Below are positions 9,095 through 64,000 of a stretch of 64,000 nt of DNA, piece after piece. The notes under the pieces are model-generated. The model was not told the origin of the DNA and searched no databases. It saw only the letters and a list, made by a program, of their open reading frames with translations. How positions within the stretch are numbered: position 1 is the first letter of the stretch; each line of letters begins with the position of its first letter. The translations under genes were made by a program, and so were the position numbers. Source of the stretch: an uncultured virus (IMG/VR IMGVR_UViG_3300007344_000002) (Duplodnaviria > Heunggongvirae > Uroviricota > Caudoviricetes); the IMG/VR virus record IMGVR_UViG_3300007344_000002; one strand, written 5' to 3'.

Positions 9095-9979
9095 TTACCA
9101 CCACTCGTCAAAGTTTCTATGCTGTACTTTTATTTGTTTAGTATTCCAACCCATAGCATCGAAAATGGGCTGGACTTTACTCACTACTTGTTCGGCGTAG
9201 TGGGGCCAATCGGGTTCAAAACCCTCTATCTCGGAAAAAGTATTTCCGGAAACATAAGTTGCTTCCTTACGAACCCCGCTTAGTGGGTCAGTAAAGAAAC
9301 CGCTTGGTCTTATTCTTAGGAAGACATAAGAATCTTCAAAGGTAATATTTCTTTCTTGCATAGAGTACAACACTCCTACAATTCCTTCGCTAATTGTTGG
9401 TTTCTTTCCCTTAGTTGTTAAGAAAGTAGATGGGTGCTTGGCACACTTGCTACAATAGAACTCACCATCAGTCCAAGAAATTTCCCTAATGTCGTACTTC
9501 TTATTACAGGTACACTTGACTAGAAATCTCTCTTTCTTTAGTCTAGTTCTTTTTGCCACTTCTTGGTAATCAAGTTCACCATTCAGTACTTTCATGTAGA
9601 CAGACTTAGCATAATCGACTATTTCTTTTTCCGATTTACCGGAAACCCACATATTGAGTGCCACTGTTTGAACTTCCTTTGCCATTGTTGTTTCGGAAAT
9701 TCTCTTAGAAGTAAATCCTGTTAGGGTAAATTTAGGCTCATCTAACCAAACTCCATCTTCCCAAGAAATCAATCCAGCGTTTCTATTCTTTGTAATTCCT
9801 ACACCCAACGATTCAAAGTATTTTTCAAACTCTAGAATAACAGGGTGTTCTTCTAGTCCTAGTAAATTAGGAAAGATAGTTCTAACTTCTTCATTTATTT
9901 TTTCAAGAGATGAAAAGGCCGACTCTATAGAATCTACCTTGACATAGATTGAGTCTGTGTGTCCATAAACTACTTCCAT
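9095..9979 (-). CDS. polB: Family B DNA polymerase, C-terminal half (motif C and thumb)
   Basis: MEVVYGHTDSIYV, KNRNAG. GGAGGTGA RBS just upstream of the ATG at 9979. Confidence 0.85.
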   Translation of the reverse strand: MEVVYGHTDSIYVKVDSIESAFSSLEKINEEVRTIFPNLLGLEEHPVILEFEKYFESLGVGITKNRNAGLISWEDGVWLDEPKFTLTGFTSKRISETTMAKEVQTVALNMWVSGKSEKEIVDYAKSVYMKVLNGELDYQEVAKRTRLKKERFLVKCTCNKKYDIREISWTDGEFYCSKCAKHPSTFLTTKGKKPTISEGIVGVLYSMQERNITFEDSYVFLRIRPSGFFTDPLSGVRKEATYVSGNTFSEIEGFEPDWPHYAEQVVSKVQPIFDAMGWNTKQIKVQHRNFDEWW

Positions 9980-9980
9980 A

Positions 9981-10575
9981 TCATTCACCTCCAAAAGCAT
10001 CTTCCCAACTAAAATCTGCATTGTTTTCTTTGGAAGTTTTCATGGCCCATTTAACATCACAATAGCACTTATCAAAAAACCAAATGAGAGTCACTAGCCA
10101 AATGAACATTAATGCAAATACTAGAAGAGTTAGCATCAAAGTACCACCACCAATAAGGTGACGATAGTAGCAATGTTGACAATATTAACCATCATCAAAA
10201 TCTTATTGCTTCTCTTGACATTGGCCAATAGTTCGCTGAGTGTTCCGTTTGTTGTTTTTTGTACTTCTATCAATTCATCTAAATTAAACATTTTTCATTC
10301 CTCTTTTATTTTTATCTACTACAGTTGCCCTATAGTATTTAACATAACATGAAAAGCAATAGTTCTTGGAAGGGTGAATCACCCTAACAAGCCTATGACA
10401 CCTAACACATCTACTCATATTATCACCTTTGATATTTCTAGGGCGAAAGTTTTTACTATTTTAATCATTCTTCTTCACCTGTTATTTCCTTGATGATTCG
10501 TTCTGCTTCACATAACTTGCAGTGATGCTTGCTTTCAAATTCGGGCCTGTGTATCATTGGTTTTATGCAATTCAT
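9981..10575 (-). CDS. Five tiny coupled ORFs between the PolB halves (10575-10465, 10468-10415, 10418-10284, 10291-10136, 10136-9981)
   Basis: Manual translation gives 36, 17, 44, 51 and 51 aa. Two are Cys/His-rich and two have a TM helix. Start and stop codons overlap. Confidence 0.5.
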
Positions 10576-12296
10576 CCTTCCATCTCCCTTGCTGTAAATG
10601 CGGCCTTACGAATAGCCTCTCTTGCACTAGCAGTAATACTAGCGGCTAGGTCTACATTCGCCCAACCGAATCCCTTGAAGGCAAGGATACCATAGAAGGA
10701 AGCCATCAAACGCTTTACAGCCATTTGGTTGTTGTTCCACTTAACGACAGCCTCCTTATCTCCAGCCTTCCTAGACTCCTTCATGTACTTCTTGTACTCG
10801 CCTCTCAACTCTTTCAAGTCGATAAGAGAGCGAGGCAATAATCCCAATTTGTCAGTCTTGAAATAGCGCATATCTTTCTCGTAGTCTTCTGCTACAGGTT
10901 GTAGATTCTGTGGAGTATTCAAGTCAGCACTGAATAGTGTTGGTTCTTCTGTAAGAGTTTCAAACGAGATATTCCTAGCAATAATCATACTAGGATAAAG
11001 ACCAGCAAAATCAAAGGCGGCTACATTGTAGTGCAATCCGTTAGTACCTTCGTCAGTAGGATTGTAAATCATAGCACCCGAATAAGATAGGCTCGCTCCA
11101 CACTTCTTACACTCTCTTAGTGTCTTCTCGTTTGGGTTCTTATGGCTACACTTATCGCAGACCTTGAACTTGGGCTTCTCTCCAGTTGGGGCTTTCCACC
11201 AAGCATTTCGCATAAAGTAGATTGAACCCATGTTAGAAGCAAAGAAGCAAGCATCGAAAGGAGCAATTAGTAATCGCTGTAAAGAAAGAATGGCTTCACT
11301 ACAGAAGTTAGTTTCATCAATCTTTACTAGTAGTTCTACATCTATCAAAGCATACTTCAAGTACGCCTCAGTATCTTCTAACCAACCTCTACGATAGAAC
11401 TCGTTAGCGTCTTCAAATTTGGTTTCCTTAGATTTACCTTCACCAAATAGAGCAGTAGAAACATACTCTAGAGATAGACTAGGTAGTGTGCCTTTCTGTG
11501 CATCATTCCATTGTCTTTCAAAGGCCATGTCCAAGTTTAGCGTAATTCTACCTCGGATAGGTTGAGCAGTAGCATGATAGCCATTCTCTTCTTTCGTAAA
11601 TCTTACCTTACCATCTTTGACCTTTATTCCATCAACAACTCCCAAAGGAGAAATAATACTAGGGTCAATATCGTAGAAGGCGCATCTAGAAAATAACTTA
11701 GGAAGGTCAGCCCAATTACCAAACCACGCAATTAACATGTCGGGGTCTTTGTCTACCATAGTCGCTAAGAAATGTTCTATCATATCTTTTTCATTCCTAA
11801 AAAAGTACTGATGTGCTGAATCACATATCATATTATCTTCGGGAAACCACGCCCATTGGATATAATCTCTATCGTAATTATCATACATTACAATAGTAGT
11901 AATCTCATCATGGTGTTCTCCGCCTTGTTGCCATTCCATATCCCAATACCACTTACGCATATCGTACTCTTTGATTTCTTCTAATCGGTCTACACAATAT
12001 CTGTAGGTGTAAGGTACATCAGCCTCGTAAGTTCTAGAAAAAGTATTCTTCAAATTCCTCAAGTCTTCCGGCATTTCTGCATAGACTTTCTTCAATCGAG
12101 TACCTTCAAGATTAACCCAATCGCCTCTCTCGTATTCTATTTCCCTAGTAATGTACTTACTAGGCTGGTAAGTAGGTGGTTCCTTACTAGTCTCTTCCAC
12201 AAAAAAGTATGGACGAAACGGAATAGTAGAACTGTGCTTAGTACCATTTTCTCTCCACGATAAATAAATATTTGAATTGTTATGTGAGATTATCAT
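10572..12296 (-). CDS. polB: Family B DNA polymerase, N-terminal half (exonuclease, motifs A and B)
   Basis: ExoI WDME, ExoIII YALID, motif A DFAGLYPS, motif B KRLMASFYG. Stops just before motif C. Confidence 0.9.
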   Translation of the reverse strand: MIISHNNSNIYLSWRENGTKHSSTIPFRPYFFVEETSKEPPTYQPSKYITREIEYERGDWVNLEGTRLKKVYAEMPEDLRNLKNTFSRTYEADVPYTYRYCVDRLEEIKEYDMRKWYWDMEWQQGGEHHDEITTIVMYDNYDRDYIQWAWFPEDNMICDSAHQYFFRNEKDMIEHFLATMVDKDPDMLIAWFGNWADLPKLFSRCAFYDIDPSIISPLGVVDGIKVKDGKVRFTKEENGYHATAQPIRGRITLNLDMAFERQWNDAQKGTLPSLSLEYVSTALFGEGKSKETKFEDANEFYRRGWLEDTEAYLKYALIDVELLVKIDETNFCSEAILSLQRLLIAPFDACFFASNMGSIYFMRNAWWKAPTGEKPKFKVCDKCSHKNPNEKTLRECKKCGASLSYSGAMIYNPTDEGTNGLHYNVAAFDFAGLYPSMIIARNISFETLTEEPTLFSADLNTPQNLQPVAEDYEKDMRYFKTDKLGLLPRSLIDLKELRGEYKKYMKESRKAGDKEAVVKWNNNQMAVKRLMASFYGILAFKGFGWANVDLAASITASAREAIRKAAFTAREMEG

Positions 12297-26038: not shown

Positions 26039-26628
26039 ACATTCACCACCATAAACGGATTAACGCTCTCTCCAGCAAACCATCGTTGCATCCACTGTGC
26101 CCCAATACTAGCGATTACAGAGTGCATGAAATGGATACCTTCCTTGCTACCATCCCAAGAATCTCCTTGACATGAGAAGGAACCATCCGGACCTGCTAGT
26201 AGCGTATCATAGGAAGAAGGCTCTGCTTGATAAGAAACAAGTGCGGCATTCCTTCCTTGAGAGCGAAGGTCTAGCCACTTTACTTCTTCTACATTGGCCT
26301 TGTATAACATTCGTCGTGTGTTTAAATTATCAACACAACAAACTACTAAGTCATATCCTTTCAGTTGGTCGTCAACTAGAATTGGATACTTGTTTCCAAC
26401 TACTACCTGCTCATAGTTCTTCTTCATAAAGAACGCTTTATTTTGCCCAACACTATCTGTAGTGAAACGCTGGTATGTCACATTCTTTTCTTCAATAGTA
26501 TCGGGGTCACTTACGGTAATCTCGTAGAGTTCCCGCTCATAACTTCCGTTCCCTGTTAGGTTGTTCAAGGTGTCAATGAGATAACTCCCAATTCCACCGG
26601 CTCCGATTATCAATATTTTTCTAGGCAT
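26035..26628 (-). CDS. E1/ThiF-family ubiquitin-like activating enzyme
   Basis: GAGGIGS, DPDTIEEKN..YQ, NKA, CVDN..RR, candidate catalytic Cys in FSCQ. Confidence 0.85.
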   Translation of the reverse strand: MPRKILIIGAGGIGSYLIDTLNNLTGNGSYERELYEITVSDPDTIEEKNVTYQRFTTDSVGQNKAFFMKKNYEQVVVGNKYPILVDDQLKGYDLVVCCVDNLNTRRMLYKANVEEVKWLDLRSQGRNAALVSYQAEPSSYDTLLAGPDGSFSCQGDSWDGSKEGIHFMHSVIASIGAQWMQRWFAGESVNPFMVVNV

Positions 26629-27476
26629 TCTATTCCTCTTCCTTTTATTTGTTTTTTATTGGTATTAATTATTTTCAAAAGCCTCTTGACTTCTCGACCA
26701 ATGGCATCATACCCAATACCACTAACCGATTCTATTTTCTTGTTCGTTATGTTCATGTTCTCCATAGTAGCCACAATAGAACAATATGCGGCTGGAGTAC
26801 TTGGCTTGATATTCTCGTTAGATTTCGAGAGAATATTATCAAAGTGAATTGATAGCAGGGAAACCTTTCCTAAGTAAGAAGGGTAGTGTTCTAGTTCGTC
26901 TGCTAATAACATAGCATATTTTTCAGCGAATGGTCTACATTCCTTTATTAGAAAAACTCCGGTATTGTTCTCTTCCTTTGCTATCTTCCTAGCCAACCTA
27001 AACACAGACTTCTTGTTGCATTCGTATTCAGCACAAACTTCTTTCAGTGTGAAGGGAAGTGACTCATTTTTCAAACAGTAGTAGACAAGTGCCGCCGCTC
27101 TATTTTCAAGAGGGGCAGTAGAAAATGTGTGCTTTCTGTAGAGCATCAAATACAATTCCTCTACAGTAGTAAAGATTGTAGAAGTTCTTGGTATCTTTAG
27201 TGATGCCATCAGTAGTCTACACATTGAAACTCCTTTATACACTGCCTTATTTTCAATTTGAGCGAAGGACAGGGATTTAGGTTTTATCGTCTGTAATCCC
27301 ATTTCATGTAAATTGGAAGACCAACGCTCTCTAATAATTGAGCCTTGGCTGTCCTGTAGATAAGTCCCTTGCTCAAAGGGTTCAGTCACTAGAACTAAAC
27401 CACACTCTTCACAAATTAGTTCTCCTAAGACTTCATCGAATTTATTCTTCAATGATTGGCATTCTAAGCATTTCAT
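26610..27476 (-). CDS. tfb: Transcription initiation factor TFB/TFIIB
   Basis: Zn ribbon CLEC...GELICEECGLV and cyclin repeats (AAALVY...TLKEV; PAAY). Confidence 0.85.
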   Translation of the reverse strand: MKCLECQSLKNKFDEVLGELICEECGLVLVTEPFEQGTYLQDSQGSIIRERWSSNLHEMGLQTIKPKSLSFAQIENKAVYKGVSMCRLLMASLKIPRTSTIFTTVEELYLMLYRKHTFSTAPLENRAAALVYYCLKNESLPFTLKEVCAEYECNKKSVFRLARKIAKEENNTGVFLIKECRPFAEKYAMLLADELEHYPSYLGKVSLLSIHFDNILSKSNENIKPSTPAAYCSIVATMENMNITNKKIESVSGIGYDAIGREVKRLLKIINTNKKQIKGRGIECLEKY

Positions 27477-28818
27477 TTTTTTCACCTTTATTACACATTA
27501 ATTCAAATTTAGAACTGAATGGATTATTTACATCAATCTTAGTACGAGTGAATATCTTAGAACTCATAACCAATCTAGGTTTAGATGCCGTCACTTCACT
27601 TCCTAAAGTGCTGACTCTACTCATAGTCATTCTGTCATTCAATAGGGAGAGAATCCTTGAGGCAAATTGGTCGCCAAGGGAGGGGTTCTTTCCTCCAGTG
27701 TTTATGCAAATACTATGACCCCAGTACATTATATCTCCGGTATCTTCACTCTTAACTCTAAGCATTTGAGTACTAACTGCTTGAACTCCTATGCTTTCTC
27801 TTTTGAGATTAGACTTAGAGCCACAGAGTAGCCAATCGGAGGTTTGTCCGGAAACAATGATTCGTATTGCTTCTTCACTATCCTTTCTTTTTACCCTGTC
27901 CGGATATTGAACCAATAAATCATCAAGAAGCGTCATGGCTCTTTCTTGCACTAACTTCTCCGAGCGATTCTGTTCTAAGAAGGCCATCATCAATTTAGTT
28001 TCTGCTTCCGTAGGTTCCTTATTCATTAAACGAGTAAAGAGGGTTTTAGGACTAAGGAACTTCCAGTTCCCTACTCGCTTACCATGACGATAAAAACCAA
28101 TCATAGTCATTAGGTCTTTTTGGGATATTTTACCCCAAACATTTGAACTGATTTCTATTGCATAGTCGTCATCGGAAATTTGCATTACTTGTAATCTAAC
28201 ATTGATTGTTCGACCCTCTTTCATATATTGAAAAGGTAGTCTAGTAGTAAGAACATATCTAATGTCTTCCGGAACTAGAATAGAACTAGCCACAATATCC
28301 CTCAACTCTTTCCTAGATAGCGGAACCTCTTTTCTTTTTGTTTTAGCATCAATATCCAAAAGAATTCTAGCGAGAATAGGGGCGATGTGTTTTCTAGGGG
28401 TGGCCATGCCGTTAATTGAATAGGAACTGCCCTTCTTAGAAATAACGACTTCTACTTCCCTAGAAGCCTCACTATCCAAGCCAGCATCGCATTTGGAAGT
28501 AAAAGTAATTACGAAAAACAAATTATCGCTTTCCGGATATTCCGTGTGTGTAGTGCCGTTCTCATCGACAATATTCATTCTATAGTATTGATGTCTATTA
28601 TATGCCCCCTTTAGGATTTCATTAAATGCCTCGGAAGTTTTTTCTAAAATAGGGTCTGCTGAATACAATACCCTAGAATCTATTCGGTGTCTGTTGGGGC
28701 AAATATGTTCTCTGAACACAACTTCTCTTCCATCCTTTTCAAAATGCACACTGCATCTTAGGGTTTTCGTATTCTCTTGTGTATATATTTCAAAATTTAT
28801 TCTTCTCATCGTAATCAC
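27442..28818 (-). CDS. Uncharacterised 458-aa protein in the Ubl cluster
   Basis: Long ORF with a C-terminal SICI...GDQFASRILSLLND segment. Confidence 0.6.
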   Translation of the reverse strand: MITMRRINFEIYTQENTKTLRCSVHFEKDGREVVFREHICPNRHRIDSRVLYSADPILEKTSEAFNEILKGAYNRHQYYRMNIVDENGTTHTEYPESDNLFFVITFTSKCDAGLDSEASREVEVVISKKGSSYSINGMATPRKHIAPILARILLDIDAKTKRKEVPLSRKELRDIVASSILVPEDIRYVLTTRLPFQYMKEGRTINVRLQVMQISDDDYAIEISSNVWGKISQKDLMTMIGFYRHGKRVGNWKFLSPKTLFTRLMNKEPTEAETKLMMAFLEQNRSEKLVQERAMTLLDDLLVQYPDRVKRKDSEEAIRIIVSGQTSDWLLCGSKSNLKRESIGVQAVSTQMLRVKSEDTGDIMYWGHSICINTGGKNPSLGDQFASRILSLLNDRMTMSRVSTLGSEVTASKPRLVMSSKIFTRTKIDVNNPFSSKFELMCNKGEKNEMLRMPIIEE

Positions 28819-35450: not shown

Positions 35451-35579
35451 GGTTATCTCATCGAGATGCTCTAACACCTGTGATTTATTTAAAAGGGGCC
35501 GTCAAACAGTCCTATGTGACTTTGTTTATATTTGAAAATACTAAAATGAAATTAGTGTTTTGAAAATAGCATTTCACAC

Positions 35580-35990
35580 ATAGCATTCGACCCTTCAAAT
35601 CCGTCAACAGCATTCGACCTCCTCGAAATCCCATTATTCTAATTCTAATTTTCGTTTCCAAATCCCAAACGCTATACTGCGCCCAAGTTTCCAACTTTCT
35701 AAGTTTCTAACCCCTAGATACTTATAGAGAGTGTGATAGATAGATTCACACTCTCATAGATAGAATAGATATTAGAATAATTAGAATATTAGAATAATGT
35801 ATAAAAACAGGGTTTTTAACCCTTTCAGGCCACTTTTCGATTCTAATTCAAGTTGGAATCACGCTGGAAAGTTCAAACTTATCATCTATAGTATATGTAA
35901 TATAAGGCCAATTGAAGTACTCTAGTATTAAATCAATAATTACTTTACTAGTGTTATCACTACCTAAAAAATAGGGTTGAGGCGTGTTTA
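35580..35990. other. AT-rich non-coding tract with inverted and direct repeats (origin- or terminus-like)
   Basis: GAGAGTGTGA/TCACACTCTC inverted repeat at 35727-35755, ATTAGAATA repeats, two copies of AGCATTCGACC. Sits at the strand switch. Confidence 0.4.
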
Positions 35991-36086
35991 AATTAGGTCG
36001 TGTGCTTTGTTAGAGGCCCTATAACCGAAATGGAGCCGTTAAAGCAGTCGAGGAGTAGAGCAACCGACCAAAGGAAGTGAAAAAAC

Positions 36087-36596
36087 ATGCCAAAAACAGC
36101 AACAGACACAGAGAAGAAACAGTGGGACGCACAAGCGGAAATTAACCGCTTCGCACCACTTGAAGAAGCCATTGAGAGTCCATCGGAAGATTGGACTTCT
36201 CTAACAGAACGAGCACAAGGACAAATCACCGACGCCCTTGAAGGACTCAAAGACGACACACAACAAGACGCTTACCGTAAGGCCGATGCGTCCCACTTGA
36301 AGTCTCTCTTGAAGCGATACAACGCCGACCACTTGATGGTTCAGCGCATGCGCTCCAACGACCCCAACCGACAACACTACGACAACATGGTTGAATCCAA
36401 AGCAAAGCATTTCATTGCTACCGGCGAAGGTGCTACAAATTTCAACCCAATCCGCAAAACGAAGGGTGGCGATGCCCACCTTTCAATGACCGCCCTTGTC
36501 GATTTCGTGTGCGGCAAATGGATTGCCGACTACGACAAAAACACCGACTACAGCCCTGCTGAAGACGACAACGAGGAGGCCACTCAAGACGAGTGA
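36087..36596 (+). CDS. Cassette gene 1, hypothetical (169 aa)
   Basis: Own promoter-like element, RBS and hairpin. Visibly C-rich codon usage. Confidence 0.7.
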   Translation: MPKTATDTEKKQWDAQAEINRFAPLEEAIESPSEDWTSLTERAQGQITDALEGLKDDTQQDAYRKADASHLKSLLKRYNADHLMVQRMRSNDPNRQHYDNMVESKAKHFIATGEGATNFNPIRKTKGGDAHLSMTALVDFVCGKWIADYDKNTDYSPAEDDNEEATQDE

Positions 36597-36660
36597 GCCA
36601 CTCCGGAAGCCCGCCGCTCTACTCCTCGGCCCCCCTTGGGGGGTCGGGGTTTTACACCAC

Positions 36661-36713
36661 GAAAGAACAATTCACAACCATATGGTATTAACTTTGGAGA
36701 TACCCTTATGAAA
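36661..36713 (+). promoter_or_regulatory. Palindromic ACCATATGGT box + CTTTG + CCCT-TATA (copy B)
   Basis: 25 bp identical to copy C. Confidence 0.7.
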
Positions 36714-36734
36714 ATAATAGAGGTGCTAGGGTGT

Positions 36735-36893
36735 ATGACACGATACGACATAACAGCAATGAAGGCAATGACTAAGACTCTAGACGCTATCCTAGAAACA
36801 ATTTCAATAAATCCTATTCCTAAACGGATTGAGTTGGATGGGAGTAGTGGGGATGGTGGCCCCACTACCCCTCCTTCCCATGACCGAGCATGA
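36735..36893 (+). CDS. Possible short leaderless ORF of cassette 2
   Basis: ATG lies about 29 nt after the TATA box, and the ORF runs into a structured region. Confidence 0.3.
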   Translation: MTRYDITAMKAMTKTLDAILETISINPIPKRIELDGSSGDGGPTTPPSHDRA

Positions 36894-37178
36894 CAAGAAC
36901 ACCCCCATACGCTGATGTATGGGATTTCCTAGTAGTAGAACTACCACCCAAGAAAAGTACTACTGCTAAAACACTCCCTGCCGACAAGGTTTCTTAAAAA
37001 GACCCTAGGGCAGACCTTACAATGGATAGGGGGGGAATGGCGCAGACGAGCGTACGGACTGAAGTAAAAAGATACTGTTGACTGACACAATTCTAGACAT
37101 GATGTTTTTCAACCTAGCGAATAGACCTTAGTGCCTTGTATCCGAGTCGGCCTCCCCTCCTATCCCTCTAGGGTCTAG

Positions 37179-37225
37179 CAAAGTACAACCATATGGTATT
37201 AACTTTGGAAAGACCCTAATAAAAA
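37179..37225 (+). promoter_or_regulatory. Palindrome-TATA element (copy C)
   Basis: CAAAGTACAACCATATGGTATTAACTTTG...CCCTAATAAAAA. Confidence 0.7.
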
Positions 37226-37273
37226 TAAGGTGGGGGTTTAGGTGTCGCTCAAGACCTTAATGGAGATGATATT

Positions 37274-37774
37274 ATGACCAAAGCAGAAGAAAACGAAAAC
37301 AAACTAAACCGGTTGTCTACGCACTTAGAACACAACCCTAACCCCGACGCAAAGATACAGAACCGATTGATTAACGCAATTGAAGACGCTGTTGACACAG
37401 AAGCAACTGACAAAGAACTCACGATGTACTACACCTATGCACGAAAACAAGCGAAGCGATTTGGCTATGGACAATATCTTTCACAAGGTTCCATTCCTAC
37501 AGTTCCCGATGAACTAGTGGACGCATATCAATTCATTGATACTGCGGTGGCCATGATTGTTCCCGAAGACCCAACTCATCCAATCTACGATGTACTACGA
37601 CGAAAGAAAAACAAGGAAGGCATTATTGCTTACACTCCCGAAACTCTACGAAAGACTTTGAGTAGCCAATCCAAGCGATGGCATCTCGAAGCCTACAACA
37701 AAGGCTCTTGGGACGGTAGTATTGTAGGTATGCAAGCCTACAGAACAGGTACTACTCTACAGGAGGATGCCTGA
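37274..37774 (+). CDS. Cassette gene 3, hypothetical (166 aa)
   Basis: GGAGATGA RBS; flanked by 14-bp inverted repeats. Confidence 0.7.
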   Translation: MTKAEENENKLNRLSTHLEHNPNPDAKIQNRLINAIEDAVDTEATDKELTMYYTYARKQAKRFGYGQYLSQGSIPTVPDELVDAYQFIDTAVAMIVPEDPTHPIYDVLRRKKNKEGIIAYTPETLRKTLSSQSKRWHLEAYNKGSWDGSIVGMQAYRTGTTLQEDA

Positions 37775-37817
37775 TTAGGCAAAATAAGGTCTTGAGCGGC
37801 CCCCTTATGGGGGTCTG

Positions 37818-37862
37818 CAAAGCATACCATATGGTTGTGTTCTTTGGAATAACCCTAATTAG
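37818..37862 (+). promoter_or_regulatory. Palindrome-TATA element (copy D)
   Basis: CAAAGCATACCATATGGTTGTGTTCTTTG...CCCTAATTA; 21 bp identical to copy F. Confidence 0.7.
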
Positions 37863-37882
37863 TGCAGTGTGGTGGTTTTGGT

Positions 37883-38266
37883 ATGCAAATACCAGCAGGA
37901 ATAACATGGCATGAAATTGAAGTAAAGGTTCCCAACCTTACCAGCGAAATCCCAACCGTATTGGGATGGATGAGAGATGTATTGAACCGAGTTGGTCCAG
38001 TTGGACCCGCTATGATGGGGCCTTACCAAGCATGGATTGAAATGGTTGAAGGAATGGATTTCACTCAAGAAGAATACGAGCAGAAAAGCCGCCGCCTTAT
38101 GGAAACTCACGCAATCGCAAGGAATGACACTTATGACATGGCTACCCGAACCGTCACCCTCAATGAGTATGGTTTTGATGATGGTAAAGACTACACCGTG
38201 TCAAGGAAGGAATCGGACATTAGAATGTTGCTTTACATGTACCACAACAGGCTAAAAGACCTTTGA
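37883..38266 (+). CDS. Cassette gene 4, hypothetical (leaderless)
   Basis: ATG about 28 nt after the TATA box; followed by a GC hairpin at about 38284-38319. Confidence 0.6.
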   Translation: MQIPAGITWHEIEVKVPNLTSEIPTVLGWMRDVLNRVGPVGPAMMGPYQAWIEMVEGMDFTQEEYEQKSRRLMETHAIARNDTYDMATRTVTLNEYGFDDGKDYTVSRKESDIRMLLYMYHNRLKDL

Positions 38267-38331
38267 AATCCCCGCTTATGACCCCCACTCTATCGGTTCC
38301 TATCCCCGATAGGGTGGGGCGAGGCACACCA

Positions 38332-38385
38332 CAAAAGAACACCGCCATATGGTTGTGACTTTGCTCTACAACCCTTATAAAAAAA
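38332..38385 (+). promoter_or_regulatory. Palindrome-TATA element (copy E)
   Basis: GCCATATGGTTGTGACTTTG...CCCTTATAAAAAAA. Confidence 0.7.
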
Positions 38386-38401
38386 GAGCAGGGCCTAGGT
38401 T

Positions 38402-39576
38402 ATGCTAACAGAAAAGCAATTTATAGAATTAATGATGGAACTAAAAGAACAGACTAGGGAGATTATGCAGATTAACAAGCGTTTGATTCATATTCATATT
38501 CTATTAGCGAGGGAGGGAGGAGAATGACTACACTAAGAGAATTTGCAGACGAACTAAAATATCTAGGAAGACTAAACAAATTTTCCTTCAAGATGCTTTT
38601 ATTCCCCGACGCTACAGAAGATTATCTTGACGCTAAGTGGAAGCACTTTCAAGATAGTCCACTCTATTTTCTTTGGACTTGTTCTAGCGATAAGTTGGAA
38701 TTAATCACAGGTTGGTTTTTGGCTAACGGCTATACAGACATTTTCACTATGGAGGAAGATGAATGAGAAAGATAACAGAAGTAAGCACTAGAGCCTTTTT
38801 TACAGACCGCACTATGAAGATAGGAAACACAGAAGTTAGACAAGTTCCTTCGGGACATTTGGTGATAACTGAACTAGTACTTCACGGAAACCGAATCGCT
38901 TGGAAGCCTACAGGATGCACTAACAACATTATGATTAGTGCAGGTGGTTGGACTAGCCACACAACAAAGGAACGCCTTAATGGTGTTCTTTGGCGTTCCA
39001 ATACTAGCGTTAGGTTAGTGCAAAAGAATTGGCTATGGTATTTAGTGAACAACGATACCTTTCAACAGTGGGATGGTACTCCCATTCATTTGAATGATTT
39101 TAGTGCCAGCATATGAGGGAGAAGAATGAGATTTAGTGCTGAATGTATTTGTGGTTACCAAACACCACTTGTTGAATGGCAAGAAGACATTGATTGGGAT
39201 TTACTTTATGCCCATCAAGAGTTTTGTACCGTAATGGAGGAAGAAGAATGAACGAAGAAGAAATGATTGAAGAAGCAACACAACGAGCCTTACTGAATCC
39301 AATATCGAATGTCCTTGAGTTCGATGTGGACCTTTACCTTGGCATCATTAGAGGTGAACAAGAATGACTAAAATTTGCGTTGAACATAACGGTGAATTTG
39401 ACGATAACGACGGCAAGGACATTTGTAAGACTTGCGAAGATTGGTTGAGTGTGCCGGAGAAGTGTGCTATCTGCGAACTTGATGATTATCACGATTCGGA
39501 GCAATACATTTGCGATGATTGCCACAACGAACTTGAGGCACTAAAGGCAGACCAATTGGCTTCAGCATGGGACTGA
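38402..39576 (+). CDS. Operon of small early ORFs (38402-38527, 38524-38766, 38763-39116, short ORFs, 39364-39576)
   Basis: ATGA-coupled ORFs. 38763 has the GW.S.TTKERLN motif seen in phage proteins, and 39364 is Cys-rich. Confidence 0.55.
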
Positions 39577-39657
39577 GCCGGAAACAACTCCACATAGAGG
39601 AGTATTAAGAAAGATAGAGGGGGGCTTAACGGCCCCTCTCTTCCTTTGCGGGGTAGT

Positions 39658-39711
39658 CAAAGCATACCATATGGTTGTATAACACTATTTTTACACAACC
39701 ATATGGCTTTG
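39658..39711. promoter_or_regulatory. Double palindrome box (copies F and G) closing the array
   Basis: CCATATGGTTGT...ACAACCATATGG inverted pair, with no following TATA or gene. Confidence 0.6.
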
Positions 39712-39719
39712 TTTCAAAT

Positions 39720-40130
39720 TTTTTTTATTATTTTAACAGTAATAGTGCTGTTTTTCCACTATTACTATTAGAATTCCTGTTAAATAGAGTACTATTCGGC
39801 GCACTACTAACAGGCTTGCAGTACTGCGTTTTTAGTAGTTGGCACATTACTAAATATGCAAAGTTTAGCGCATTAAACGGTAGCGAAATTACTATTAGTA
39901 CGATACTCTTAGCCATGAATAGGCAGAAGGGGGGCGAAAACTACCAAGACACTATAGTATTGTGCTAAGGCTTACCTAATTAGTACAGTACTGCGGGGCT
40001 ATTACTAATGTCCCAAATAGCATTTACAAAAATAGTATTATTCTTATTCTGGGAATACATTTACTATTAAAATAAAATTTTGCGTAGTCCCGAACAAATT
40101 CCGCCAAAAATTTTGAGAAATTTTTTTTTG
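39720..40130. repeat. AT-rich tract with many TAGTA/TACTA/ATTACTA words
   Basis: More than ten short iterations in both orientations, and no credible ORF. Confidence 0.45.
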
Positions 40131-61612: not shown

Positions 61613-62417
61613 TGTGGGAAAGAATACTAAAACAATCCGATATGATAGAAAAAGAAAACAGTCCAATTTTGGACTCACTAGATGAAAAGAAGAGAAAGCG
61701 ATTGAAGAAGACTCTACAATCGGCAGAACCAACTGAATACTTTGGTCAAGATTTCACTCGAATGGGTGAACTCATTGACATGTTAAGAGAGTTAGACTTG
61801 GTTAAATCCGATGATAAGATGAAAAAGAAGTTCGACGGCATTGACGAAAGGAACATTGATATGGTGGCCCTATCTAGCAAACTTCGTAAGGAGTACGAAG
61901 TCTTGTATCGTCAACTACGAGAAGTCGTATATCCAAAGAGAAAGGGGGACTTGAGAGATGAGTGAAAATAATGAAGACATGCTGATTATTCTAAAGGAAT
62001 TAGTCGGTAGAATTAAGACTCTAGAACAAGCAGTCTACAACAAAGATAACCTGCTTATGAAGTCGGGCTTTGTTGTTGTCGATGGCCCTACTCCATCCAT
62101 GTCAAATCAATCTGTACCGGATGCTGATGCTATCCATAAGATGAGTTGGAATGACATTGAAAAGTTCGTAAATGGGAGGAACTGATATGCCGGAAAAAAT
62201 GACAAAAGAGGAAGCACAAATTAGTCGAGCAATTAGATTGGTCCGTAAAGCAAAGGAAGTTCTTCAAGAAGAAGGTAGAGAAACTCTACCATTGGAAATA
62301 GAAGACCCCGATGTTAAGACTAAGAAGCCAAAGGCAGAAAAAGACGATACTAAGATTGAGAATGATACAGGTACTCATTCCGGATATGGTCTTGCTGGAG
62401 ATATTAACGACGCTTGA
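61612..62417 (+). CDS. Three small head-arm ORFs (61612-61965, 61958-62185, about 62187-62417)
   Basis: MWERILK tag on the first; internal MSWNDIEK in the second. Confidence 0.55.
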
Positions 62418-62425
62418 GTGATTCG

Positions 62426-64000
62426 ATGGCGACCACTGGCCTAATGTTCGAGAAGGATAAGGCTCCTTTATCTAACGAAATTTTATCTCTCTTCGAGGAA
62501 ACTAGAGTCGCTTATCTATCTGCAAAATCCGACCCCAAAGAGTATGGAGGTCGGTGGAGAAATATACTTGAGAAGATTAAAGAATCGTATGATAGCCTTA
62601 GTCCTCTTGGTAAAGAACTCAAAGAATATTTAGATGAGCGTCACCTTGAGGCTGATGATACAGGCAGTCCTACAAGTGGCTCTGCTAAAATCGTCTATGA
62701 TTCTGTTAAGCAAATGAGATTCGACTCCGAGAATGTCAACGACCCATTCTCTAAGAAAATGAAAGGTAATGTACTAGAATCTCTACTATCGAATGTAGAT
62801 GTTTTTATGAAGTTCATTCACTATGCTATTAGAAATGGTGATGATGCCTTATCTTCTAAACTCTATAATGAATTAGAATATCAAGGTGACGAGATAACTG
62901 ATGGTTTGGAAGGACTAGACTTGGCATTAGATGATGTTCCTCTTTTTGTTATTGAACACTACGGCGATGATAAAGATAGTAAGAAGGTGAATTTTAAATT
63001 CAAGAATGCGCTAAAGGAACTCAAGAAGGTATTTTTATCCGGACACTCCGAAGAGGACTGGAGTAAATTAGTTGGAGTAGAATTAAAGAAATCAATGAGT
63101 GCTATGATGGCTCAAGAATTAAAATTCAAAGAAAGAATGGAAAACCCTACTATGAGAGTAGAAGAAAAACCCGATGTGACTCAAAATGTAGCAGTAGTTG
63201 AAATGGATGCTGATGTTTCGGGAGATTGTTGCGAGCAGTTAAAACAGGACTACATAGAACTCAAACGAGAAATGTTTGAATCGTTTATTGCTCATCATGG
63301 TTCTTGGGAAAAATTTACACAGGAAACTGGCCGCAGGTATGAAGATACTCCGGAAAATGAATTAAAAGAATTAACGGAATACTTTAACTCACTTGACTGT
63401 GAGGCATTGTATGAATTTATTAGTGACATATTTAGCGAGAATACTAGACCCAAAGAACAAGAAATTCTTGATAGATACGAAAGTTGTAATTCCTTTGGTT
63501 CGGACTTTTCGGATAAATACGCTATGCTTAAATCTAAAAAGTCCGAGGAAGAGAAGGCCATCTCCAACTTCCTAACTCCCAACAAACCAATGTATCGTAT
63601 ATTCGATATTGAAGATATGAATGAATTGATGGGATTCTCCGGAGATTATGTCGTACAAGAAAAGTACGATGGAATGAGAATACAAATTCATAAGATTGAT
63701 GATAAAGTTGAAATCTTTTCATTTAACGGTAAGGACATTACTGAAAAATGTACTGAACAAGTAGCAGAAATGAAAAAGAAATCTTATGGCGACTGTATTC
63801 TAGATGCAGAACTAATTCTATTCGATGGTGATAAAGCCCTACATAGAGCAGATACAGTTGCCCATGTATTCAAAAATAAATACCCCGAAGCAAAACTAAG
63901 AGCGCATGTTTTTGACATAATGCGACACGAAGAAAAGAACTTGATGGATGATGAATTACAGATTAGGATTAACATTCTATTCAATAATTACTCGGCAAAG
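62426..64000 (+). CDS. lig: ATP-dependent DNA ligase with an N-terminal extension of about 380 aa (3' truncated, not in the ORF track)
   Basis: Frame is open from ATG 62426 to the window end. Intact motif I QEKYDGMRIQIHK (Lys codon 63662-63664), motif III ILDAEL, motif IIIa HVFDIM. Confidence 0.85.
   Translation, partial: MATTGLMFEKDKAPLSNEILSLFEETRVAYLSAKSDPKEYGGRWRNILEKIKESYDSLSPLGKELKEYLDERHLEADDTGSPTSGSAKIVYDSVKQMRFDSENVNDPFSKKMKGNVLESLLSNVDVFMKFIHYAIRNGDDALSSKLYNELEYQGDEITDGLEGLDLALDDVPLFVIEHYGDDKDSKKVNFKFKNALKELKKVFLSGHSEEDWSKLVGVELKKSMSAMMAQELKFKERMENPTMRVEEKPDVTQNVAVVEMDADVSGDCCEQLKQDYIELKREMFESFIAHHGSWEKFTQETGRRYEDTPENELKELTEYFNSLDCEALYEFISDIFSENTRPKEQEILDRYESCNSFGSDFSDKYAMLKSKKSEEEKAISNFLTPNKPMYRIFDIEDMNELMGFSGDYVVQEKYDGMRIQIHKIDDKVEIFSFNGKDITEKCTEQVAEMKKKSYGDCILDAELILFDGDKALHRADTVAHVFKNKYPEAKLRAHVFDIMRHEEKNLMDDELQIRINILFNNYSAK

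Follow-up and report, generated by a model that had tools for sequence, protein, structure and literature searches.

Two adjacent genes of an uncultured tailed virus are each bracketed by a pair of complementary sequence arms, one in the 5' untranslated region (UTR) and the other in the 3' UTR. The genes, referred to here as genes 1 and 2, lie in a 64,000-nucleotide (nt) stretch of DNA (IMG/VR record IMGVR_UViG_3300007344_000002; this entire stretch is called the window below), which gene content identifies as a magrovirus of the group B type; magroviruses are viruses of Marine Group II archaea. The best overall explanation, to which we assign a probability of about one half, is that each pair of arms forms a clamp that joins the messenger RNA (mRNA) end to end, buries both of its termini, and gives it stability.

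Complementary arms enclose two adjacent genes

Inspection of the sequence with a repeat finder shows that in unit 1, comprising gene 1 and its flanks, CGAGGAGTAGAGC (36049-36061) is perfectly complementary over 13 nt to GCTCTACTCCTCG (36616-36628), the two lying 554 nt apart, and that in unit 2 the 14-nt segment CGCTCAAGACCTTA (37246-37259) is perfectly complementary to TAAGGTCTTGAGCG (37785-37798), or over 19 nt at 89% when extended. GT precedes both 5' arms and GC follows both 3' arms, giving GUCG at the 5' side and CGGC at the 3' side with a U.G wobble included, and with this wobble and the outer G-C pair the stems measure 15 base pairs (bp) in unit 1 and 16 bp in unit 2. The 3' arms overlap hairpins formed by a C-run and a G-run by 3 nt, such that the outer GGC of each hairpin also serves as the partner of the 5' GUC. 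The 5' arms end 26 nt (unit 1) and 15 nt (unit 2) before the AUG, and the 3' arms begin 19 and 10 nt past the stop codon (Table 1). These features had been described in an initial annotation of the sequence, and most of that description stands: the four arms occupy the positions given for them, each pair is perfectly complementary while differing in sequence from the other pair, and in both units the arms begin with GTCG and end with CGGC with the hairpin directly following.

Folding with RNAfold, proposed in the same annotation as a check, places the clamp and the hairpin in both the minimum free energy (MFE) and the centroid structures of each unit (z = -3.3 for unit 1 and z = -1.4 for unit 2). 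The Shine-Dalgarno (SD)-like segment is unpaired in both centroids; in unit 1 this segment is GGAAGTGA, which resembles the SD consensus. An additional pairing of the ribosome binding site of unit 1, GGAAGTG with CACTCC, which the annotation had also put forward, can be drawn but appears in neither the centroid fold nor the RNAalifold consensus, and is therefore not confirmed. RNAfold further shows a weak outer helix in unit 1 between 36031-36037 and 36648-36654, which on reading by eye is not kept in relatives.

The pairing stands out from the remainder of the genome. For 90 of 91 non-overlapping open reading frames (ORFs) of the window, the 70 nt preceding the start were compared with the 70 nt following the stop, and the length of the longest perfect antiparallel match was taken as the score; unit 2 reached 14 and unit 1 reached 13, against 8 for the gene ranked next. 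In a null set of 7832 mismatched flank pairs, one reached 13, none 12, twelve reached 11 and 22 reached 10. Two adjacent genes top the list of 90, and the pairing is therefore not attributable to chance.

The pairing is maintained by compensatory change

Database searches yielded 22 homologs of gene 1 and 16 of gene 2, the DNA of these relatives being drawn from viral and metagenome contigs; several of the loci (numbered with an L) represent the same contig (e.g. L007, L010 and L018), and L011 is identical to the window across the unit. A stem is present in every homologous locus for which both flanks are available, although those of L146 and L055 are short.

For unit 1, loci L012 to L018 (72-83% amino acid identity) have the arms GTCGAGGAGTAGAAC and GTTCTACTCCTCGGC, in which a G-C pair of the window is replaced by A-U through a double change. 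At 33% amino acid identity, L019 has the arms GTCGAGTAGTAGAAAGGCC and GGCCTTTCTACTACTTGGC, forming a 19-bp stem with two further double changes, one change of G-C to G.U, and four added pairs. An alignment of nine unit 1 loci over 15 pairs (A3) is paired in all 135 of its 135 cells, both partners having changed in three pairs and one partner in a fourth (G-C to G.U), with 11 pairs invariant; sliding the partner by 1-3 columns reduces the paired fraction to 33-53%, and the observed values are reached in one of 500 shuffles. RNAalifold, run on this alignment, finds the helix unaided. In unit 2, the arms of L019 (36% amino acid identity) are replaced by GTCGAATAGGAGAACGAC and GTCGTTCTCCTATTCGGC, which form an 18-bp stem.

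More remote relatives also have stems. Distant gene-1-like genes, recognized by a hidden Markov model (HMM) match with a weak score (E = 0.0013), likewise occupy the first position after the divergent region, and their arms are entirely different; the stem of L080 is 21 bp with a one-nucleotide bulge, and L141 has a 21-bp stem in which a substitution in one arm and a deletion in its partner have closed this bulge. Among distant gene-2-like genes, whose stem interiors are also wholly different, the stem is 16-17 bp in L147, 18+3 bp in L142 and L143, 11+3 bp in L145, 8 bp in L146, 9+2 bp in L055, and 20 bp with one mismatch in L144, which shows an A-U to U-A swap relative to L142. The clamp adjoins the hairpin in L019, L141 and L147 as it does in the window, and is separated from it by a spacer in L080.

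All 13 of the distinct units compiled are paired, with 215 pairs comprising 201 Watson-Crick pairs and 14 G.U pairs on the sense strand; in about nine of the 14 it is the conserved U.G of the second position that recurs. When the opposite strand is read, the 14 G.U pairs turn into A.C mismatches, and 11 of the 13 units fold no better there, the opposite strand being marginally lower in energy in L142 (-32.3 vs -32.0 kcal/mol) and L146 (-16.2 vs -15.8). Since nearly every pair other than Watson-Crick is a G.U of the sense strand, the helix is a property of the sense RNA rather than of the DNA. Sequence comparison thus shows that the pairing is under selection, compensatory changes having preserved it in orthologs as well as in the paralog, in agreement with the conserved, covarying architecture that the initial annotation had proposed.

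A scan of viral contigs with a 14-nt promoter-side motif gave 119 loci that are mostly chance single matches; tblastn with genes 1-3 found nothing among these 119, only an HMM search picked out L080, L071 and L055 (E 3e-4 to 1.3e-3, weak), and a blind search of the same loci for inverted repeats of at least 12 nt gave 89 pairs, nearly all of them chance. In L019, the segment 1975-2030 contains the 3' arm of unit 2, then CGGCCCC, and then a longer hairpin with two G.U pairs (GGCCCTCCGGC ... GTCGGAGGGTC), and looks like a partial duplication of the clamp-end and hairpin module.

The 5' arms begin near the predicted transcript start

A motif of the form TTTG-N(6-8)-CCCTWAT occurs at 36006, 36693, 37204, 37843 and 38360, and precedes both clamped genes. 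The gap between its heptamer and GTCG is 23 nt in units 1 and 2, and the distance from the heptamer to the first base of the 5' arm, counted by eye, is 22-26 nt in all 13 units. In three neighboring genes that have no clamp, a gap of 23-25 nt separates the heptamer from the ATG and leaves no room for a leader. This is the position of the TATA element in archaeal promoters, and the geometry of a leaderless mRNA. Because the heptamer-to-arm gap matches the heptamer-to-ATG gap of the clamp-less genes, we infer that the 5' arm begins within approximately 3 nt of the expected transcript start, which accords with the earlier placement of GTCG at that start. Among the cassette genes carrying the promoter motif, those of units 1 and 2 are the only ones that are leadered and SD-bearing; most other genes of the window have SD-like motifs too, within operons. 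A scan for sigma-70 promoters and intrinsic terminators gave no result at the cassettes, consistent with a host that is not bacterial.

Table 1. Coordinates in the window of the two clamped genes and of the elements associated with them.
Feature	Coordinates	Strand	Remarks
Promoter-like motif, unit 1 (TTTG ... CCCTATA; heptamer at 36017-36023)	36006..36023	+	Putative archaeal B recognition element (BRE)/TATA-type element
Clamp 1, 5' arm GTCGAGGAGTAGAGC	36047..36061	+	Starts at the predicted transcript start
SD-like segment GGAAGTGA	36073..36080	+	Unpaired between clamp 1 and the start codon in the centroid
Gene 1	36087..36596	+	169 amino acids; helical; matches no known family
Clamp 1, 3' arm GCTCTACTCCTCGGC	36616..36630	+	19 nt past the stop codon
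GC hairpin 1 GGCCCCCC-TT-GGGGGGTC	36628..36645	+	Outer GGC shared with the outer three pairs of the clamp
Palindrome ACCATATGGT	37188..37197	.	Upstream of the unit 2 promoter-like motif
Promoter-like motif, unit 2 (TTTG ... CCCTAAT; heptamer at 37214-37220)	37204..37220	+	Found by motif scan
Clamp 2, 5' arm GTCGCTCAAGACCTTA	37244..37259	+	Sequence, repeat finder and fold
SD-like segment GGAGATGAT	37262..37270	+	From the sequence
Gene 2	37274..37774	+	166 amino acids; helical; matches no known family; probable distant paralog of gene 1
Clamp 2, 3' arm TAAGGTCTTGAGCGGC	37785..37800	+	10 nt past the stop codon
GC hairpin 2 GGCCCCC-TTAT-GGGGGTC	37798..37815	+	Sequence and fold

A group-B-type magrovirus

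The window has viral gene content, including a terminase and a portal protein identified in a PHROGs search, together with archaeal-type genes identified in family searches: an ERCC4/XPF protein with a helix-hairpin-helix domain, a split family B DNA polymerase (PolB), RFC, an ATP-dependent DNA ligase that includes the N-terminal domain, and a TFIIB zinc-ribbon protein. A bacterial-type GroEL that matches phrog_5725, and tRNA-Met, tRNA-Leu and tRNA-Arg are also encoded. The polymerase is divided between two minus-strand ORFs at 10572-12296 and 9095-10021, approximately 550 nt apart, and among deposited viruses its best full-length matches come from haloarchaeal tailed viruses, with an identity of about 25%. 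A nucleotide search of a phage collection with the window gave no match. According to PMC5434244 (Philosof et al. 2017), group B magroviruses carry a split DNA polymerase, GroEL, tRNA-Leu, tRNA-Arg and an archaeal-type replication module, and magroviruses are assigned to the uncultured Marine Group II Euryarchaeota. The split PolB, GroEL, tRNA-Leu and tRNA-Arg, RFC, ligase, TFIIB zinc-ribbon protein and ERCC4 of the window match this description, and its assignment to the group follows from that match. The bacterial setting assumed in the initial annotation is thus replaced by an archaeal one, which changes the nucleases and the promoter logic that are relevant.

A second protein with a ligase domain (DNA_ligase_A_M, residues 409-524) is encoded at 62414-64000 beside structural genes, so that the virus has two ligase-domain proteins; this one is truncated by the end of the window, and approximately 400 of its N-terminal residues match no family. 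The zinc-ribbon protein of the virus is encoded on the minus strand at 26610-27485.

Both the strand bias and the GC skew of the genome switch at approximately 35500-36000, and the rightward arm that follows this divergent switch opens with genes 1 and 2. The divergent intergenic region (35480-36000) is AT-rich, contains many short direct repeats (e.g. tagaat/attagaat and agcattcgacc units), coincides with the turn of the GC skew, and may represent a replication origin or a regulatory hub. The two clamped genes differ in composition from the rest of the genome, the 2-kb bin at 36001-38000 having a GC content of 0.469, compared with 0.343-0.411 across the remaining 31 bins.

Genes 1 and 2 are probable paralogs

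AlphaFold2 models of both proteins are all helical, with mean confidence (pLDDT) values of 71 for gene 1 and 86 for gene 2. Searches of Pfam and PHROGs with genes 1-3 returned nothing useful, a Foldseek comparison of both models with the PDB gave no match at E 0.001 or better, and ESM Atlas gave no usable match; the VIA wide structure search with gene 2 gave only generic helical-bundle matches (Z up to 7.4, residues 1-65). The two proteins are not significantly similar by BLASTP, and a first hhalign comparison gave a probability of 19.8%. With both family alignments widened to include distant members (A4 and A5), hhalign gives 86.2% (E 4.9e-6) over 125 collinear columns, and it is only with these widened alignments that a distant paralogy of the two genes becomes convincing. 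Since both are clamped and appear to be paralogous, the clamp probably predates the gene duplication and has outlasted recognizable protein similarity.

Neighboring cassettes and promoter repeats

The palindrome ACCATATGGT occurs at 36677, 37188, 37826, 38345, 39666 and 39698 within 36677-39706; it precedes the promoter-like motif at four of the five sites, usually by about 7-10 nt, and the copies at 39666 and 39698 face one another. For CCATATGGT there are 10 strand-hits against 0.23 expected. The palindrome is probably the site of a dimeric regulator.

Gene 3 (37843-38340), with its promoter motif and hairpin, forms a further cassette, and its true start is probably the ATG at 37883 rather than the GTG at 37862. 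By tblastn it is present in four of 11 loci (L011, L012, L015 and L016) and absent from L007, where the junction of the indel (compared with L007 3540-3600) falls within the repeated promoter segment CCATATGGTTGTG. Cassettes thus seem to be gained and lost by recombination between promoter repeats, as read from this junction. The arrangement may be compared with the PeSL elements of T4-type phages, in which small early genes, each with its own promoter and a terminal stem-loop, are shuffled by recombination between repeats of the promoter region; those stem-loops are local hairpins in bacterial phages, whereas the clamps pair 5' with 3' across an ORF. A small ORF at 36747-36893 follows a promoter motif and is apparently leaderless. 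Between the two units, approximately 350 nt are without a plus-strand ORF of 50 amino acids or more; this interval is partly conserved in L007, which has an insertion of about 260 nt.

Parts of the region are present in RNA libraries

Four marine metatranscriptome runs of one study, searched as Logan contigs, contain parts of 35800-39900. The pieces correspond to 36060-36614, 36760-36895 and 37262-37429, so that gene 1 is largely covered, the ORF at 36747-36893 partly, and gene 2 over its first third. They cover neither the arms nor the hairpins, and contigs cannot show transcript ends; three of the piece ends (36060, 36614 and 37262) lie at a distance of 1-3 nt from an arm's inner edge. For the contigs of these four runs, which cover no arm, no joint or circular junction was reported. 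The contig at 36760-36895 has a depth of 9.7 and adapter letters on both sides, indicating a fixed 136-nt insert that may be a small stable RNA or an artefact of the polymerase chain reaction.

Models for clamp function

We infer that the clamp functions in the protection of the message. A separate TATA-type promoter would drive each gene and produce an mRNA with a leader and an SD, whose opening nucleotides (GUCG...) would pair with the 3' UTR just ahead of the C-run/G-run hairpin. The resulting helix of 15-16 bp (8-22 bp in relatives) would stack on the hairpin and bring both ends into one stack of approximately 20 bp or more, leaving the SD, the start codon and the ORF open as a loop of 520-590 nt. 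With the 5' terminal nucleotides paired and the clamp and hairpin stacked, as predicted, both RNA ends would be buried; the clamp would then put the 5' end out of reach of beta-CASP-type 5'-to-3' exonucleases and shield the 3' UTR from 3'-to-5' decay or endonucleolytic entry, giving long-lived messages. It would also bring the stop codon beside the start region. This proximity of start and stop, and a masking of the tail from a termination factor, would be compatible side effects of the clamp or else rival explanations.

Several observations weigh against this explanation or weaken its support. Independent compensatory events within one alignable family are few (in unit 1 there are three double changes, two of them in one distant sequence); the arms of unit 2 are invariant in close relatives, which is uninformative either way; and the stems of L146 (8 bp) and L055 (9+2 bp) are short enough that they would not stand alone. 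The start at GTCG is deduced from motif spacing and from neighbors assumed to be leaderless, and the hairpin of unit 2 is not followed by a clear T-run, such that its message could belong to a longer transcript. The RNA libraries may contain DNA, and their contigs accordingly demonstrate presence in a library rather than proving transcription. Finally, the magrovirus assignment was made by gene content, and the host assignment is taken from the literature.

A first alternative, which we consider unlikely, is that the clamp is a processing stem confined to a precursor – perhaps a longer early transcript running through several cassettes – where, like the helices that flank rRNAs, it would mark the site of endonucleolytic cutting that frees a trimmed mRNA. 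The missing canonical T-run after the unit 2 hairpin makes read-through possible, the cassettes are arranged head to tail, each with its own promoter-like motif, and a helix of 15-22 bp with a stacked hairpin reaches the length used by double-strand-specific nucleases. Archaeal rRNA processing helices, however, enclose a non-coding RNA and contain a bulge-helix-bulge, whereas the clamps are perfect helices around ORFs: they are continuous, and no bulge-helix-bulge (two 3-nt bulges with a 4-bp helix between them) was seen by eye in the folds. With the 5' arm at the inferred transcript start there would moreover be almost nothing to trim on the 5' side, and for these two reasons the processing explanation is the weaker. 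To our knowledge, RNase III is generally absent from archaea, which also counts against it.

A translational role is likewise improbable as the primary explanation, although it is compatible with, rather than exclusive of, the stabilizing role favored here. The stop codon would be held near the SD and start codon so that ribosomes reload in a closed loop, or initiation would be tuned; the clamp would thereby give physical form to a cooperation of UTRs reported in haloarchaea. The arms do lie just outside the path of the ribosome, at the distances from AUG and stop codon given above, and the clamped genes are the only leadered, SD-bearing ones among the cassette genes with the promoter motif. 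In Haloferax volcanii, 5' and 3' UTRs must act jointly for translational control (PMC2636863), but the available text of that report shows no base pairing between UTRs.

A more speculative extension, to which we attach little likelihood, is that the clamp and hairpin serve as a ligation scaffold for a covalently closed circular mRNA. Were the RNA to end after the G-run/UC of the hairpin, its 3' end would abut the paired 5' G, leaving a nick in a continuous helix; a cellular or viral ligase could seal this nick, and the GUC common to the 5' end and to the 3' side of the hairpin would let the junction slide into register. The circle would be exonuclease-proof and translatable from an internal SD. 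In the rRNA processing helices and circular RNAs of archaea, inverted repeats similarly join flanking sequences, and a helix with abutting ends has the geometry of a ligase substrate. If true, Archaea would possess a protein-coding mRNA that is naturally circular, or at least closed by base pairing.

Still less probable is a role in termination or 3'-end control, in which the 5' end would either compete against the hairpin base or keep a termination factor off the 3' UTR, and so set the read-through into the next cassette. The 5' GUC and the 3' GUC of the hairpin do compete for one GGC in both units and in L019, L141 and L147, and archaeal FttA/aCPSF1 cleaves exposed nascent RNA after translation ends (PMC8501993). 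This reading is an argument from geometry alone, the overlap is only 3 nt, and the GUC/GGC closing pairs are absent in L142-L146 and L055.

We regard inverted repeats acting at the DNA level – whether as termini of a mobile cassette, as an invertible segment or as a cruciform – as very improbable. Each pair of arms does bracket one gene, and cassettes are gained and lost in this region, as gene 3 illustrates. Three observations lead us to reject this explanation: the strand asymmetry confines the function of the 14 G.U pairs to the sense strand, both arms fall within the transcription unit, and promoter repeats rather than clamp arms delimit the gene 3 indel. The arms also differ between units and between orthologs and yet stay complementary, unlike the sites of recombinases or transposases; Pfam and PHROGs searches of the window ORFs revealed no adjacent transposase or invertase, and no orientation variants or target-site duplications were seen in the loci compared.

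Chance complementarity is effectively eliminated: in 64 kb, a single inverted 13-mer with its copies within 600 nt of each other is no rarity (about 0.5 expected, by a rough estimate) and the repeat finder gives other pairs of 13-14 nt elsewhere in the window, but these stems fall exactly in the UTRs of adjacent genes and persist with compensatory change in every relative compared, and the flank scoring and covariation test already refute it.

A fold-back mRNA of the hok type, following the analogy with type I toxin mRNAs drawn in the initial annotation, was considered and rejected. The ORFs encode hydrophilic, helical, soluble-looking proteins of 166-169 amino acids rather than small hydrophobic ones, the centroids and the RNAalifold consensus contain no conserved SD-sequestering helix, and no antisense partner was seen. 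A search of Rfam with the window returned only the three tRNAs at the gathering threshold and one sub-threshold match to MicX.

Relationship to known systems and significance

Pairing of the 5' UTR of an mRNA with its 3' UTR is already known from bacteria, and for archaea only a functional cooperation of UTRs was found. The closest parallel is the Bacillus subtilis hbs message (PMC5737220; Braun, Durand and Condon 2017), in which a 14-nt 5'/3'-UTR pairing upstream of the terminator controls decay, and in which compensatory mutants proved both the pairing and its effect on cleavage and stability. There, as here, a fully complementary stretch of about 14 nt, contiguous in each UTR, encloses a short ORF, with the 3' partner directly upstream of a terminal hairpin; units 1 and 2 have both the contiguous complementarity of approximately 14 nt or more and this position of the 3' arm. 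The hbs gene differs in being a bacterial cellular gene, with a 5' arm that lies within a long structured leader and with RNase Y and RNase J1 as the nucleases, whereas the clamps belong to an archaeal host setting, have the arm at the inferred start, occur in two paralogs, and are known from sequence alone. In hok (tac/fbi pairing; PMC9841398) the ends of the full-length mRNA also pair to give a compact, stable RNA, but the closed form sequesters the SD and is inert until 3' trimming, and the system consists of a small toxin ORF and an antisense RNA; in the clamped messages the SD would lie in an open loop, and the proteins are of a different size and character. The archaeal UTRs of H. volcanii act together (Brenneis and Soppa 2009, PMC2636863) in a functional dependence without demonstrated base pairing, in contrast to the covarying pairing described here.

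In the open-access literature searched, no such pairing of mRNA ends was found for archaea or archaeal viruses. The available portions of the magrovirus papers PMC11706807 and PMC10160649 make no mention of promoters, inverted repeats, UTRs or hairpins, and those of PMC5434244 likewise make no mention of two of these.

The pairing of mRNA ends has been demonstrated in a few bacterial messages, is assumed to be protein-mediated in eukaryotes, and has been no more than a functional hint in archaea. The clamps would represent a direct RNA-RNA closure of the message, kept by compensatory evolution across paralogs that no longer align by BLAST, in abundant uncultured viruses of the ocean. As a concrete and mutable element, the clamp would offer access to the means by which archaeal mRNAs are protected from 5'-to-3' and 3'-to-5' decay, and to the relationship between end proximity and translation; it also yields a model of the promoters and transcript starts of magrovirus early genes, and for engineering it would provide a compact natural design for the stabilization of messages.

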